Below are positions 4,232-44,847 of a stretch of 64,000 bases of DNA, one piece after another. The notes under the pieces were generated by a model. That model worked only from the letters and a program-made list of their open reading frames with translations, did no database searches and was not told where the DNA came from. The stretch's first letter is position 1; every line of letters starts with the position of its first letter. The stretch comes from a phage. A program made the translations under genes and the position numbers. Location: sequence record PZ347775.1. One strand, given 5' to 3'.

Positions 4232-4420
4232 TTAGTCATAATAATCAGTAACAGTCCAAGCTTCATTTCTGTTGGACATTATTTTCGTATATTCTGATTT
4301 AAATGCATTCTTAAGCATAGATTCAGTAACTATATGCTCTTCATTAGAAAAATTATTTCTCAGAATATATCGTTTTATTTCAGGAATAGTTAATAGATGC
4401 TGTCCAGTTGAATATTCCAT
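4232..4420 (-). CDS. hypothetical small protein (T4 45.2 position)
   Basis: 62 aa ORF, tightly packed in operon. Confidence 0.55.
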   Translation of the reverse strand: MEYSTGQHLLTIPEIKRYILRNNFSNEEHIVTESMLKNAFKSEYTKIMSNRNEAWTVTDYYD

Positions 4421-4475
4421 GTTTTTCCTCCATAGAGATTATACTCTAATAAATTAAAGCATAATCTCTTATAAA

Positions 4476-6158
4476 TTAAACCATTACAGTAAACCGACCA
4501 ACTTTCTTCATTTGAAGATGCTGACCATATTCTTGCGGGTCGTGGTCTTTATGCGAAATTATAAAAACATTAGTATTTTTCATTGAATTTATAATATTAG
4601 CTACACCTTTAATACCTTCAGCATCAAATGACCCATCAAACACTTCATCAAGAATTAATGTACTAATACTAACACCAGATACGATAGAAGCAATATCACG
4701 CCAAGTAAATAAAAGAGCAATATCGATTCGTGCTTTTTCACCTTCACTAAATGAAGCATAACTAAAATCTTCACGACCACGGGATTTAATTGTCTCATTA
4801 AATTCTTCATCTAATGTAAACACATAATCCGCTTCCATTATTTTAAGATAATGGTTAATTTGCTTATTAAATAATGGAATGTACTTTTTAATAATAGCAC
4901 CTTTAATACCAGAATCTTTGAGCATGTCAGTCAAAATTCCTCTGTGGTATTTTTCCATTACTAAATTAGTTTTTGTCTTAACAATTTTATCAAGTTCTTC
5001 TTGAAGCAGTGCTATTTCATCAGCATGGTCAATAAACTCGGATGATGCTTTTTCTATAGCTGCTTTAACTTTTTTAGCTTTATCTACAGTCGTGATTAGA
5101 GATTGCTTTTTATTGCGAATATCATTTGCCAACGTCTGCTGGGTTTTAATATTATCTCGGTATTCATCAACAAGAACTTTTAAATTATCACGATGTGTTG
5201 AAAGCTGTTCAAACGAATGCGTGCATTCAGAAACTTTATCTTTAATTTTAGAAACAACTTTATCACCGGAACTTAATTGTGACAAACAGGTTGGACATAA
5301 TCCACCTTCGTGATACATATTAATGACTTTATTATACGAGTCAATTTTTGATTTAATTAAAAATGCTTCTTGACCGATTTTATTAAATGCATCAGTCGGG
5401 TCTTCATCCAAAACAATATTAACTAATCTTTCATTAGCTTCTTCTATTTCCGATTTTAACGTTCTAGCTTCTTTTGCCAAATCATCATACATGTTCTGCA
5501 GACGAGTAAGGTTATCACCAGTTAATTTTTTCTGGCGTTCAACGTTATCATTATATATTTTAATTTGTTGGATAATACTATCTTTTTTAACATCAAGCAC
5601 TTGGTTTTGTGAATTTAATTCACGTATTAGTGCTTTATTAAGCTTATCCATTTCAGCTAATGTTCCTACCTCGAGCAGGTCTTCCACAAGCTTTCTTCGC
5701 GCAGGGGTCGACAAACCCATGAAAGGGGTATACCCTGCTGTACCAAGGACAACAATCTGCTTGAAACTGGCATATGACATTCCGATAAGCTGTTCAAATT
5801 CTGCTTGGAAATCTTTACTGCTGGCAGATTCATTAAGACGTGTACCGTTAACGGTGATTTCGAAAACGTTTGGTTTTTGTCCTCTTTTGATATAGTACTT
5901 TTTCTCATCATATTCCATCCACAGTTCAACTAAAAGTTCTTTCTTATTTGTGCTGTTTATTAATTGACCTTTCTTTACATCACGAAATGGCTTGCCAAAA
6001 AGCCCAAATGTGATGGCTTCTAACATAGTAGACTTACCGCCGCCATTTCGCCCAGTAATAAGAGTTTTTTGAACCTTATCTAGTTGAATGTCAATAGGAT
6101 TTCCACCTACTGACATTATATTTTGATACCTAACTCGGTTTAGTTTAAAATTCTTCAC
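4476..6158 (-). CDS. 46: recombination nuclease ATPase subunit gp46 (Rad50/SbcC-like)
   Basis: 560 aa; N-terminal Walker A GRNGGGKST, long central coiled coil with CPTC zinc hook, C-terminal signature/Walker B (LILDEVFDGS). Confidence 0.92.
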   Translation of the reverse strand: MKNFKLNRVRYQNIMSVGGNPIDIQLDKVQKTLITGRNGGGKSTMLEAITFGLFGKPFRDVKKGQLINSTNKKELLVELWMEYDEKKYYIKRGQKPNVFEITVNGTRLNESASSKDFQAEFEQLIGMSYASFKQIVVLGTAGYTPFMGLSTPARRKLVEDLLEVGTLAEMDKLNKALIRELNSQNQVLDVKKDSIIQQIKIYNDNVERQKKLTGDNLTRLQNMYDDLAKEARTLKSEIEEANERLVNIVLDEDPTDAFNKIGQEAFLIKSKIDSYNKVINMYHEGGLCPTCLSQLSSGDKVVSKIKDKVSECTHSFEQLSTHRDNLKVLVDEYRDNIKTQQTLANDIRNKKQSLITTVDKAKKVKAAIEKASSEFIDHADEIALLQEELDKIVKTKTNLVMEKYHRGILTDMLKDSGIKGAIIKKYIPLFNKQINHYLKIMEADYVFTLDEEFNETIKSRGREDFSYASFSEGEKARIDIALLFTWRDIASIVSGVSISTLILDEVFDGSFDAEGIKGVANIINSMKNTNVFIISHKDHDPQEYGQHLQMKKVGRFTVMV

Positions 6159-34449: not shown

Positions 34450-34826
34450 TTAGAAAATAAATTTATCCAAGATTGCTCTTTAATTAAAAATGGCTCAGAA
34501 TCATATGCCATTAAACTTTGGGTGATTAGTCCTTTAAAAGGCCCATCAATAAATTCCATGGTAAAATATGGAATTTTATTCATTAATCTTGCATTAGGAG
34601 CAGTGCACAAAACTCTGCATCCTTTGAATACGCCTTTTTGTAATTTGTATTGCTTAGGGTAAAATTCGCTCAAGACGTTGTTATTTGCCAAAATTTCAAA
34701 ATGATTCACCAATTTATTTTTAATAGTTTTTGGCGAAAAATAAAGATATTCGAAAAGTTGCGTGTCTGTCATCATTGCATTCCGATTACGAAAAACTGTG
34801 GACGAGTAATACCACCAATGCAACAT
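34446..34826 (-). CDS. hypothetical protein
   Basis: 126 aa ORF, start overlaps neighbour. Confidence 0.4.
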
Positions 34827-35359
34827 TTACTATTGCAGCAGTAATGTACAGTGTCAATATGGACACTATAAATTTTATCCATATCGGGAGCTTTAACAGG
34901 CTCATCGATTATATACAAAATCCGCGAAAGCGATAAACCTCTGAACTTGCTTCCTTTATTACCGATAAAACTACGGACAGAATCGGTAAATAAGCGGAAT
35001 CGAATATCATCGCCAGAATAACGAGAAAATTCTTTTTTAATGTGGCCTGCAGAAATTTTAGCGTAAGCTGAAGTATTAGAAAGAACAATAACTGTTCCAC
35101 CATCATACAGCCAATTAGCAGCAAAGTTAGTCACAGCAGTTGATTTACCGGATTGTCTGCCACCATCTAATCGAAGTGTGCAATACTGCTTGAGTAAGTC
35201 TTCAAATGGTGGGATATAATCGTTTTTACAAATTTCTTCTACTCTAGCATCAGAATGGTGTGTAAAAGCATTCATCAGGGATAGATAAGGACCAGTTAAA
35301 AATGTTCTCATTTTATTCTCTCTAAATTTGGGCCATTCCATGGCGCATGAATTGTCCAT
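34772..35359 (-). CDS. hypothetical protein with P-loop-like motifs
   Basis: GGRQSGKST (Walker A-like) and ILYIIDEP (Walker B-like); true start uncertain. Confidence 0.45.
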   Translation of the reverse strand: MDNSCAMEWPKFRENKMRTFLTGPYLSLMNAFTHHSDARVEEICKNDYIPPFEDLLKQYCTLRLDGGRQSGKSTAVTNFAANWLYDGGTVIVLSNTSAYAKISAGHIKKEFSRYSGDDIRFRLFTDSVRSFIGNKGSKFRGLSLSRILYIIDEPVKAPDMDKIYSVHIDTVHYCCNSKCCIGGITRPQFFVIGMQ

Positions 35360-35464
35360 TTCTGTATTTACCCATTACCGCACTTGGGCTCGACCTTATT
35401 ACAGGTTGGCGGGAATCCCTCATAGAACCATGAGGTCCAGCTTGTTCCCATATTTCTTATTTGC

Positions 35465-35938
35465 TTATTTGAATGATTTGACGTACTGAATAGAGCCTTT
35501 GCTATTCACGAAAGCGATTTTACCATTTTTATTATACATGGTAGCAGTACGCTGATAGCCATAAGTTTGCTTACCAGATTGATAACCAACTAATGCAAAA
35601 TTATCTTCACCCATTTTATTCTGTTTAGCACGAATGCGTTCATGCCCATGCGCCATAAGAACCTTAGCATCACCAGTTGCAATGGATCTACGAGTTTTTT
35701 CATCTTCAACTGTATTAACAAAGTCGTCAAATGAATCAAATTTAGCATGGGATTTATTATACAGTTTTCCATCTACTGCATAATTGTATCCTTGTACATC
35801 CATCTCAACTTCTGTACCATCATCTAATACAGCAGTGATTTTTTGACCTTTTTTAAATTTCAAAAGATCAGTAAAAGATTCAGCAATAATTTGAGAATTA
35901 ATAGCTGCTTCAGTAATAAATTCTTGATATGTTTTCAT
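35465..35938 (-). CDS. internal-protein-like capsid-targeted protein (N-terminal CTS MKTYQEFITEA)
   Basis: 157 aa beginning with the conserved capsid targeting sequence of T4 internal proteins. Confidence 0.65.
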   Translation of the reverse strand: MKTYQEFITEAAINSQIIAESFTDLLKFKKGQKITAVLDDGTEVEMDVQGYNYAVDGKLYNKSHAKFDSFDDFVNTVEDEKTRRSIATGDAKVLMAHGHERIRAKQNKMGEDNFALVGYQSGKQTYGYQRTATMYNKNGKIAFVNSKGSIQYVKSFK

Positions 35939-35954
35939 GTGTATCCTTTAATTT

Positions 35955-36272
35955 TTATTCTTTAGGGAAGTTTTTAGAATATGCATCATAAAGCTTATTT
36001 CCAATACGGCGGAAAACTCTAGCCGCAAAACGATTTTCTGGGTTTTTAATCATGATTTGCATCATATAAGTACCCGCGTCAGAAAGAGCTTCTTCATAGT
36101 ACCCGTTAATTTCTTTAAGAGTCCTACGTTTACCACCAGGACCATCAACAGTGATTTTCCATTTACCTGTAGAAGTGCGACTTGGCGGCTCAACTTGTTC
36201 AATCCAGATATAACCGCCTTCTACACGTTGTCCTTGGGCAGATTCTGCAATAAATTCTTTAAACGTTTTCAT
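35955..36272 (-). CDS. internal-protein-like capsid-targeted protein (CTS MKTFKEFIAES)
   Basis: 105 aa with CTS-like N-terminus, adjacent to e as are T4 ipII/ipIII. Confidence 0.65.
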   Translation of the reverse strand: MKTFKEFIAESAQGQRVEGGYIWIEQVEPPSRTSTGKWKITVDGPGGKRRTLKEINGYYEEALSDAGTYMMQIMIKNPENRFAARVFRRIGNKLYDAYSKNFPKE

Positions 36273-36343
36273 ATGGTTCCTTTAAATATTTTAATTAGTA
36301 ACTATGAATATACTATCACAGTTCTAGGAGAAAGTAAACAACT

Positions 36344-36874
<531 letters not shown>

Positions 36875-40904: not shown

Positions 40905-41378
40905 TTATTTGATTTGTTTAGCAGACCAAATGCGGTCTTTAATAATTTTTTGGATGTCTTCAACATACTCAAGAGAGTGAACATGTGGATTATCTTTGAA
41001 ACTATAGGCACGGGCTAACTTTTGGCCTTCGGTTTTGATTACTAAAAGCTCTTTAAGGATAGCTTCATACTTAGCGATAATTCCTTTAACAATATTTTTT
41101 TCTTGTGTAGCTTTAGGATCTGCTTTAGGAGCAGGTTTACCCGAAGCCTTTGCAAAAGCAGCACCAGTAGCAACTAAACTTTTCCAGGCCATACTAACCG
41201 CATTTCCCGTAAATCCTTCGGCTTTCATATCACGAGCAAATTGGAATCGTGATTCATCGGAAGCATCTTTATAGGAATATTTACCCGCGGCAATGGCAGC
41301 TTTTGCAACAGCTTGAATTTCAGTGCTAGATGCTTCATTTAACACCGCTTCATTTAAAAATTGAGCATATGATTTCAT
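40905..41378 (-). CDS. internal-protein-like capsid-targeted protein (CTS-like MKSYAQFLNEA)
   Basis: 157 aa, Ala/Lys-rich, CTS-like N-terminus; flanked by two near-identical hairpins. Confidence 0.55.
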   Translation of the reverse strand: MKSYAQFLNEAVLNEASSTEIQAVAKAAIAAGKYSYKDASDESRFQFARDMKAEGFTGNAVSMAWKSLVATGAAFAKASGKPAPKADPKATQEKNIVKGIIAKYEAILKELLVIKTEGQKLARAYSFKDNPHVHSLEYVEDIQKIIKDRIWSAKQIK

Positions 41379-41429
41379 CTTATTTCCTGTTTTAATTCGT
41401 GGTTTTAATATACTTATTTATACTAAAAA

Positions 41430-42130: not shown

Positions 42131-42206
42131 TGGTCGAGGCAGTAGGGATCGAACCTACGACCTAGGACTTAGAAGGTCCTTGCTCTTCCTTCTGAGCTAT
42201 GCCCCG
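42131..42206 (-). tRNA. tRNA-Arg (anticodon UCU)
   Basis: Hand-folded cloverleaf on minus strand: acceptor CGGGGCA/TGCCTCG, anticodon loop CTTCTAA, T-loop GGTTCGATCC, encoded CCA. Confidence 0.8.
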
Positions 42207-42210
42207 TAAT

Positions 42211-42286
42211 TGGGGTGACCGATGGGAGTCGAACCCATGACTACGAGAATCACAATCTCGAGTTCTACCAACTGAACTACGGCCAC
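42211..42286 (-). tRNA. tRNA-His (anticodon GUG), no encoded G-1
   Basis: Acceptor GTGGCCG/CGGTCAC, anticodon loop TTGTGAT, discriminator C, CCA; resembles E. coli tRNA-His. Confidence 0.7.
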
Positions 42287-42400
42287 ATTAATACCTACTC
42301 CAACAATCAAGATGTCTTCACACGAAATTAAGAGAAGAGTGATCAGTTCAACCCCGATAATCGCGTCAAGTAGATATTAATGTGACAGTTGTCACAAATT

Positions 42401-42475
42401 TGGCGGACGTGATAGGATTCGAACCTATAACCAATCGCTTAACAGGCGATCGCTCTGCCATTGAGCTACACATCC
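42401..42475 (-). tRNA. tRNA-Asn (anticodon GUU)
   Basis: Acceptor GGATGTG/CACGTCC, anticodon loop CTGTTAA, T-loop GGTTCGAATCC, CCA. Confidence 0.75.
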
Positions 42476-42479
42476 AAAT

Positions 42480-42566
42480 TGGTGGGGAGTGATGGAGTCG
42501 AACCACCCGAGTCGCAATGACAATGGATTTACAGTCCACACCGCTACCTCTACGGGATAACTCCCC
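42480..42566 (-). tRNA. tRNA-Tyr (anticodon GUA), class II with long variable arm
   Basis: Acceptor GGGGAGT/ACTCCCC, anticodon loop CTGTAAA, long variable arm TGTCATTGCGACTCG, CCA. Confidence 0.75.
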
Positions 42567-42579
42567 TTAATTCTTAATT

Positions 42580-42654
42580 TGGTGGCCCTGGGTGGAATTG
42601 AACCACCATCTGGCGATTATGAGTCGCTTGCTTGAACCTTCCAGCTACAGGGCC
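42580..42654 (-). tRNA. tRNA with anticodon CAU (Met, or Ile if C34 is modified as reported for T4 tRNA-Ile)
   Basis: Acceptor GGCCCTG/CAGGGCC, anticodon loop CTCATAA, T-loop GGTTCAATTCC, CCA. Confidence 0.7.
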
Positions 42655-42655
42655 T

Positions 42656-42732
42656 TGGTGCTGATTGACGGAATCGAACCGCCGACCTTCTCATTACAAG
42701 TGAGTTGCTCTACCTACTGAGCTAAATCAGCA
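42656..42732 (-). tRNA. tRNA-Thr (anticodon UGU)
   Basis: Acceptor TGCTGAT/ATCAGCA, anticodon loop CTTGTAA, T-loop GGTTCGATTCC, CCA. Confidence 0.8.
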
Positions 42733-42736
42733 AAAC

Positions 42737-42826
42737 TGGCGGAGGCGATAGGATTTGAACCTATGAGTCGCCGGAGCGACTGCCGGTTTTCAAGACCGGT
42801 GCATTAAACCACTCTGCCACGCCTCC
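42737..42826 (-). tRNA. tRNA-Ser (anticodon UGA), class II
   Basis: Acceptor GGAGGCG/CGCCTCC, anticodon stem CCGGT/ACCGG with loop CTTGAAA, long variable arm, CCA. Confidence 0.8.
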
Positions 42827-42828
42827 AG

Positions 42829-42902
42829 TCTCCATACAAGGATTTGAACCTTGGACCTCCTGATCCCAAATCAGGCGCTCTACCAAACTGAGCTACACGG
42901 AG
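42829..42902 (-). tRNA. tRNA-Pro (anticodon UGG), CCA not encoded
   Basis: Acceptor CTCCGTG/TATGGAG, anticodon loop TTTGGGA, T-loop GGTTCAAATCC; 3' end is A-CU not CCA. Confidence 0.75.
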
Positions 42903-42912
42903 TAAATTAAAT

Positions 42913-42986
<74 letters not shown>

Positions 42987-42991
42987 AAATT

Positions 42992-43078
42992 TGGTGCGAG
43001 AAGTGGGACTCGAACCCACAAGGAAATCATTCCGCAGCATTTTAAGTGCTGTGCCTTTACCAATTTGACCATTCTCGC
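42992..43078 (-). tRNA. tRNA-Leu (anticodon UAA), class II
   Basis: Acceptor GCGAGAA/TTCTCGC, anticodon stem CAGCA/TGCTG with loop CTTAAAA, long variable arm, CCA. Confidence 0.8.
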
Positions 43079-43079
43079 G

Positions 43080-43152
43080 CTGGGAATAAAGGACTCGAAC
43101 CTTTGCATCCTGGAATCAAAATCCAGTGCCTTACCAACTTGGCTAATTCCCA
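43080..43152 (-). tRNA. tRNA-Gln (anticodon UUG), CCA not encoded
   Basis: Acceptor TGGGAAT/ATTCCCA, anticodon loop TTTTGAT, T-loop GGTTCGAGTCC; first gene of the cluster. Confidence 0.8.
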
Positions 43153-44198: not shown

Positions 44199-44507
44199 CT
44201 ATTTTATTCCGCGTGATGCAATTGTGTTCTGCCGTTTAACACCAGTTTGTTTAAAGTCATGATTGTCGATTTGATCGGTACGAGCAACACCGAATGATGA
44301 TTTAATCTTAGCTTTAGATCCTTTAGTTATAGAAATAAACATCTCGGAAGCCCCTTTCTTAAAGTCCGAGGCGATTACTTCAACGCCGTTCTTAGCAAGT
44401 GACCTCAGAATTGCCTCCGCGTACTCATCATCAAGACTCGCCTGAGTATTAATAACGAATGTCTTTGGTGCAGTCGCTTCATTGATAAATTCTTGATATG
44501 TTTTCAT
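44199..44507 (-). CDS. internal-protein-like capsid-targeted protein (ipI locus; ORF track to 44519; CTS MKTYQEFINEA from internal Met)
   Basis: CTS motif 4 codons into the ORF; position upstream of 57B matches the T4 ipI locus. Confidence 0.6.
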   Translation of the reverse strand: MKTYQEFINEATAPKTFVINTQASLDDEYAEAILRSLAKNGVEVIASDFKKGASEMFISITKGSKAKIKSSFGVARTDQIDNHDFKQTGVKRQNTIASRGIK

Positions 44508-44574: not shown

Positions 44575-44847
44575 TTATTTTAAATAAATTGCATATTTTT
44601 TATAACCAGCCGTCTCGTGACGCAGACCTTTTTCATTAGCAAAGCGTTCAATATTATTAATTTGATTCTGATCAAGTTCTGAAATATCAAATACAAAAAA
44701 GTTTCGTTTATTTCCTAACGTTACATGATTCGTCAAATCAATGTTATAAAGATGATTTATATTATCAATCATAGTCTTAACAGATTTGCTAATTTTTACT
44801 TCTTCATTAAGAGCAGATTCAACGATAAACTCTTTGAAAGTTTTCAT
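44575..44847 (-). CDS. internal-protein-like capsid-targeted protein (CTS MKTFKEFIVES)
   Basis: 90 aa with CTS N-terminus. Confidence 0.6.
   Translation of the reverse strand: MKTFKEFIVESALNEEVKISKSVKTMIDNINHLYNIDLTNHVTLGNKRNFFVFDISELDQNQINNIERFANEKGLRHETAGYKKYAIYLK

Follow-up and report, generated by a model that had tools for sequence, protein, structure and literature searches.

Internal-protein genes ip10 and ip4, with predicted capsid targeting sequences, occupy a variable locus beside lysozyme gene e in T-even phage DNA

We analysed a stretch of 64,000 nucleotides of phage DNA (sequence record PZ347775.1), called the window throughout. Two open reading frames (ORFs) lie on its minus strand directly downstream of gene e, a T4-type lysozyme gene with 95.8% DNA identity to T4 e; both are present just where the initial annotation had placed a pair of internal-protein genes. 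The coordinates of all features are collected in Table 1. An AAGGA Shine-Dalgarno sequence stands 6-8 nt 5' of the start of each ORF. Compared with phage PP01, ip4 carries 19 synonymous codon changes and no non-synonymous one, and is thus a protein-coding gene under purifying selection; for ip10, three changes are synonymous and three non-synonymous. The lengths of 157 and 105 aa, first taken for those of the mature domains, are in fact precursor lengths. Once the 10-residue targeting sequences are subtracted, 147 aa remain for Ip4 and 95 aa for Ip10, and both predicted mature proteins are basic (pI 9.1 and 9.6, respectively).

Table 1. Features of the ip10-ip4 locus and of the ipI locus in the window.
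Feature	Position	Strand	Remarks
Late promoters TATAAATA	36852-36859 and 36865-36872		upstream of e
Gene e, T4-type lysozyme	36344..36838	-	upstream neighbour of ip10; Pfam Phage_lysozyme match
e-ip10 intergenic region	36273..36343	-	conserved promoter-like element GTTTAC...TAGTATATT and AAGGA ribosome-binding site
45-bp ribosome-site and targeting-sequence module of ip10	36243..36287	-	right-hand junction of the cassette swap
ip10 coding sequence	35955..36272	-	105-aa precursor, stop included; MKTFKEFIAES start
Capsid targeting sequence of Ip10	36243..36272	-	MKTFKEFIAE; predicted gp21 cleavage after Glu10 (I-A-E|S)
ip10-ip4 spacer	35939..35954	-	contains AAGGA ribosome-binding site
45-bp ribosome-site and targeting-sequence module of ip4	35907..35951	-	blastn 91% to T4 ipII and ipIII modules
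ip4 coding sequence	35465..35938	-	157-aa precursor, stop included; MKTYQEFITEA start
Capsid targeting sequence of Ip4	35909..35938	-	MKTYQEFITE; predicted gp21 cleavage after Glu10 (I-T-E|A)
Ip7-like targeting-sequence gene	44199..44507	-	ipI locus; 102 aa; phrog_2667; 94% identical to T2 'Ip7'
Ip9-like targeting-sequence gene	44575..44847	-	ipI locus; 90 aa; phrog_7673; 86% identical to VR26 'ip9'

Judged by their sequences, the 157-aa and 105-aa products are the named T-even internal head proteins Ip4 and Ip10, respectively. Ip4 matches Pfam DUF7412 with 319.4 bits (gathering cut-off 27; E-value 5.7e-96) along residues 1-157 of the 158-position model, and phrog_3155, 'internal virion protein', with an E-value of 6e-102. 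It is 100% identical to the 'IpIV internal head protein' of PP01 and to the proteins of T2, RB18 and RB33, 99.4% identical to 'Ip4' of RB51 and 99% identical to the BFVD entry 'Ip4 [phage K3]'. Over the 157 residues, identity to this whole group of K3, T2, RB18, RB33, RB51 and PP01 is thus 99-100%, and there, too, the gene lies downstream of e. T2 has ip4 directly after e, whereas in the window ip10 is placed between them.

Ip4 is present in 471 phage records, with an identity of at least 99% in 291 of them and of 60-71% in phages of Klebsiella, Salmonella and Serratia. The protein is near-invariant among Tequatrovirus-like records, and 53 positions are invariant across genera, D47, H64, D79, D90, H99, E111 and D112 among them. 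Its conservation is as high as that of lysozyme e. An AlphaFold2 model (pLDDT 72) has an N-terminal helix followed by a beta-rich body; a structure search with this predicted fold gave weak matches only, mostly to generic small beta-barrels, and no functional clue. Ip4 matched no enzyme family in Pfam, NCBIfam or the PDB sequences.

Ip10 matches phrog_3966 (2.4e-33) over residues 1-105 and is about 97% identical to the 'Ip10 internal head protein' of PP01. The two differ in three residues (Y4F, Q5K and A13Q), by which the window protein acquires the MKTFKEF leader of T4 IPI type. Among the 190 phage records with Ip10 are Dhakavirus 'ip10' (71%) and Karamvirus proteins (about 50%); the Ip10 of SP18 and of VR25, with 70-71% identity, is also encoded beside e, and in Karamvirus-type records the match lies beside the lysozyme gene or overlaps it. 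Most records name it 'hypothetical protein'. Against 1.84 billion representative proteins, the Ip10 profile retrieved a single true relative, of 97 aa and with the leader present. We rejected the four other matches, all large repeat proteins (FG-GAP, RTX and SdrD-like), as artefacts of summed weak repeats. The AlphaFold2 model of Ip10, with a pLDDT of 49, is unusable.

For both families, PDB sequence searches with the family profiles returned chance-level matches only (E of at least 0.06), PADLOC and NCBIfam scans nothing meaningful, and a literature search on IpIV, Ip10, or Ip4 together with GmrSD nothing relevant. Both genes belong to families that are already known, named and widespread, and the window contributes no new family.

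The N-termini of the two precursors can be compared with that of T4 IPIII, whose first ten residues suffice for capsid targeting; its positions 4 and 7 are needed for targeting, positions 8 and 10 for processing, and the prohead protease gp21 cleaves after the Glu of an L/I-X-E motif (PMC9026906). All four of the positions mapped in IPIII are kept in Ip4 (Y4, F7, I8 and E10) and likewise in Ip10 (F4, F7, I8 and E10), which bears out the earlier claim of a T4-type capsid targeting sequence on both ORFs. The Ip4 leader differs in one residue from the MKTYQEFIAE of T4 IPII and IPIII. In a six-frame scan of the 64-kb window, the pattern MK[TS][FY][KQ][ED]F has four matches, each of them at the first ATG of an ORF; since all four fall at ORF starts, the leader motif is no chance match. 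Homologues of Ip10 keep the leader down to 50% identity in three genera, for instance MKTYQEFITE|S in SP18 and MKTYQEFLTE|T in P0018. The predicted mature N-termini are Ala11 for Ip4 (AAINSQIIAESFTDLLK) and Ser11 for Ip10 (SAQGQR...), where cleavage after Glu10 is predicted from the L/I-X-E motif.

Virion data are available for an orthologue of Ip4. In a 2026 proteomics study of purified virions of Klebsiella phages ValerieMcCarty03/04, the protein gp127/gp119, labelled 'internal virion protein', was assigned 66/66 peptide-spectrum matches (PMC13119998). In ValerieMcCarty03, gp127 is encoded beside the lysozyme gene and is 70% identical to the window Ip4 over its full length. Its peptides (Supplementary Data S2 of PMC13119998) cover residue 11 onward, and two matches, with low scores, are to the semi-tryptic peptide E.SRLATVGVMTESVGSNLLK.F, which starts at Ser11 after Glu10. 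No virion peptide of gp127 in the same table starts within residues 1-10, though TYQEFLNESR is a good tryptic peptide. This published peptide table of a 70%-identical orthologue, re-read here, points to packaging of Ip4-family proteins and to their cleavage behind Glu10. Absence from virions, named in the initial annotation as evidence that would count against it, does not apply to the Ip4 family, whose orthologue is abundant in the purified particles. For Ip10, we found no proteomic record in the literature.

Because E20 of Ip4 is nearly invariant, we considered I-A-E20|S as a second site for gp21. It is disfavoured by position -3, where just half of the homologues have L or I, and cleavage there is not supported in the orthologue, since a virion peptide runs intact across residue 20.

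The virion peptide tables of PMC13119998 hold further, unremarked evidence on mature N-termini of internal proteins (ValerieMcCarty03 locus 4298..5272). In the part of Supplementary Data S2 covered here, the most N-terminal peptide of the IpII orthologue of this phage starts at Val13 (R.VSAGKLEAAINK.K), which is consistent with cleavage after Glu10.

The locus as a whole matches 768 phage genomes, headed by that of Escherichia phage ADUt (97.4% identity); nearly all are from T4-like phages that infect Enterobacteriaceae. In blastn alignments with T4, the window is collinear up to position 35453 (about 95% identity) and again from 36240 (about 93%), which corresponds to T4 position 66383 and falls within the ipIII targeting sequence. 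Between these collinear flanks, T4 has denV-ipII-ipIII (1440 bp) and the window has ip4-ip10 (786 bp). The sole homology to T4 inside the swapped block is the 45-bp module of ribosome site and targeting sequence, 89-91% identical and repeated before every ip gene. As aligned, the locus is a recombination cassette, with its right-hand junction in the repeated 45-bp module.

Thus ip4 and ip10 sit in a variable ip locus, one of those known (the one beside e; another lies between trna.4 and 57B). Other arrangements at the site are e-ip4 in T2, e-denV without an ip gene in Bas37 and e-ip4-ipII-ipIII in ValerieMcCarty03. Repoila 1994, as cited in PMC3012670 and PMC12373910, is the source for interchangeable internal-protein cargo in T-even phages and for the cassette behaviour of ip loci. 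The window is a well-documented example of this ip-locus organisation.

The gene denV (endonuclease V) is absent from its T4 position (35424..35464) and from the whole 64-kb window, as it is in T2. In some close relatives (JLBYU22, ESh33 and PinkRuby) the region is matched in two pieces, is about 414 bp longer and has a denV-type gene listed there. Next to the locus, the homologue of T4 vs.8 is distributed over two ORFs (34772..35423, minus strand): residues 1-32 of T4 vs.8 match 35423..35328, and residues 26-219 match 35359..34775. The pattern points to either a frameshift or a genuinely split gene; short ORFs are annotated in the corresponding vs.8 interval of the T2 record, too.

The stretch 5' of ip10, its GTTTAC...TAGTATATT element included, can be aligned with two intergenic regions of T4, e-ipIII and ipIII-ipII. 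We found no late-promoter consensus TATAAATA immediately 5' of either gene. Two late promoters precede e, and the minus strand from e to ip4 shows no terminator-like site, which makes read-through from e plausible. The two genes are probably transcribed with, or just after, late gene e.

Further leader-bearing genes occur elsewhere in the window. Between 57B and the tRNA cluster, at the ipI locus, are the Ip7-like and Ip9-like genes, so that the window has at least four internal-protein genes; T4 IPI, IPII and IPIII are all absent. The tRNA cluster itself (42131..43152, minus strand) comprises eleven tRNA genes (Arg, His, Asn, Tyr, Met, Thr, Ser, Pro, Gly, Leu and Gln) versus eight in T4, and has no segB homing-endonuclease gene inside it.

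Another ORF, of 157 aa (40905..41378, minus strand; upstream region to 41460), belongs to phrog_2280, 'unknown function', and starts with MKSYAQFLNE|A, in which all four key targeting residues (Y4, F7, L8 and E10) are present; its Dhakavirus homologue starts with MKTYNEFLTE|Q. The family has 512 records and is hypothetical in every record sampled. A late promoter TATAAATA (41415-41422) stands on the 5' side of the ORF, as does a terminator formed by a conserved GC hairpin with a T-run. The corresponding T4 interval holds no homologue, and that of Bas37, bas37_0244, is non-essential in the HIDEN-SEQ table. From its N-terminus, this protein may be an unrecognised capsid-targeted internal protein.

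Very probably, the two ORFs beside e are ip10 and ip4, interchangeable internal-protein genes of T-even phages (genus Tequatrovirus), acting by the following route. Each gene would be translated from its own ribosome-binding site, on transcripts made with, or just after, those of late gene e. The ten-residue leaders would steer the precursors to the prohead scaffolding core, as the leader of T4 IPIII does. There gp21 would cut after Glu10, and the basic mature proteins would remain in the head with the DNA, as mass spectrometry of the orthologue indicates for Ip4 and as we infer for Ip10. Both would be injected along with the genome, as in T4. In the cell, they may inhibit, stoichiometrically, a host nuclease that attacks glucosyl-hydroxymethylcytosine DNA, i.e. 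a type IV restriction enzyme.

Of the roles considered for Ip4 and Ip10, inhibition of a type IV restriction enzyme ranks first, with about an even chance, by analogy with four characterised leader proteins. Ip1 blocks the GmrSD of CT596, Ip2 the GmrSD/BrxU of ECOR21 and Ip3 the GmrS1/GmrSD2 pair of ECOR17, each with strict specificity (PMC12373910). The fourth, Bas37_0260, blocks McrBC, so that T-even internal proteins can hit type IV enzymes beyond GmrSD (bioRxiv 10.1101/2025.11.20.689424). The idea that the present proteins may be variant cargo with different targets agrees with the established view of T-even internal proteins in general. No phage product reaches the cytoplasm earlier than the injected internal proteins, and because the four characterised ones all disarm type IV enzymes, each uncharacterised one may point to a new host defence or a new mode of inhibition.

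Some observations speak against an anti-restriction role. In a panel of GmrSD systems, Silas et al. 2025 saw no reproducible inhibition by ip4-10, constructs that we matched to the window genes by name. Phage T2 is restricted by GmrSD-ECOR21 and GmrSD-ECOR17 (PMC12373910); since its Ip4 is identical to that of the window, Ip4 at its native dose fails to block either. The conservation of Ip4 fits better with a conserved target or a structural role than with a fast arms race.

A mainly structural role is rather unlikely, but it is the alternative that fares best. Ip4, and perhaps Ip10, would then be basic, DNA-associated head components that aid core assembly or DNA condensation and ejection, without a specific host target. 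The basic pI of both mature proteins, shared with IPII and IPIII, speaks for it, as do the purifying selection on ip4, the 60-70% identity of Ip4 across several Tevenvirinae genera, the abundance of its orthologue in virions (66 spectra) and the negative GmrSD panel; moreover, T4 with mutant IPIII assembles its heads more slowly and has a reduced burst (PMC9026906). However, T4 IPIII itself, formerly held to be structural, proved to be a GmrSD inhibitor. The proteins are also dispensable at family level, for Bas37 has no ip gene at the locus, T4 lacks both Ip4 and Ip10, and T2 lacks Ip10, and such cassette-like presence and absence is the typical pattern of accessory counter-defence genes.

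It is less probable again that Ip4 is not a one-to-one inhibitor at all but an injected enzyme or effector that acts on the phage DNA itself or on some conserved component of the host; in a milder form, Ip4, Ip10 or both would neutralise a defence outside the type IV families of GmrSD and McrBC. The effector idea is drawn from the near-invariance of Ip4 in hundreds of T-even phages, its conservation in several Tevenvirinae genera, with invariant His, Asp and Glu residues, and the negative GmrSD panel. We consider it very unlikely that Ip4 follows the logic of the capsid-packaged ADP-ribosyltransferase Alt, as an enzyme or take-over effector that is injected and acts catalytically on a conserved host component instead of inhibiting a nuclease one-to-one. 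The seven invariant polar residues listed above are potentially catalytic, conservation equals that of lysozyme e, and the mature protein, at 147 aa, exceeds most single-target inhibitors in size (IPI*, for example, has 76 aa); yet Ip4 has no match among the enzyme families searched, and its model is of moderate confidence only.

Finally, that the 105-aa ORF is not packaged, its targeting-like start being a recombination relic at the repeated module and its product cytoplasmic or not made, is highly improbable: the lack of a proteomic record, the label of hypothetical protein or unknown function in most GenBank records and in PHROGs, the poor AlphaFold model and the clustering of differences from PP01 in the leader (Y4F, Q5K and A13Q) are outweighed by the retention of leader and I/L-X-E site in homologues of three genera, a Phe at position 4 as in T4 IPI, a good ribosome-binding site and a gene consistently beside e.

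As candidate inhibitors of type IV restriction, Ip4 and Ip10 can be set beside the characterised internal proteins. In profile comparisons, the mature parts of the two show no homology to IPI, IPII, IPIII, Bas37_0260, Bas37_0261, Ip7 or Ip9, nor to each other, and hhalign probabilities are 1% or less. In three of the four BLASTP comparisons with T4 IPII and IPIII, the first 12-14 residues alone align; the fourth, of Ip4 with IPII, spans 77 residues at 31% identity and is led by the common leader. The mature domains are hence distinct from those of T4 IPII and IPIII, as had been surmised at the outset, with BLASTP matches led by the leader only.

Bas37_0260, the McrBC inhibitor described in the HIDEN-SEQ preprint, follows the same leader logic as Ip4 and Ip10, but is unrelated in sequence, comes from a different locus and is absent from the 64-kb window. 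T4 IPI, which as IPI* inhibits the GmrSD of CT596, is capsid-targeted, cleaved by gp21 and injected, and it starts with MKTFKEF as Ip10 does; it differs in its 19-residue propeptide, in its location at the other ip locus and in a mature domain unrelated to those of Ip4 and Ip10. While the mature domains of T4 IPII and IPIII are likewise unrelated to Ip4 and Ip10, and their targets are the GmrSD of ECOR21 and ECOR17, they occupy the same locus 3' of e, carry a near-identical targeting sequence and ribosome-site module, and are small and basic, like Ip4 and Ip10.
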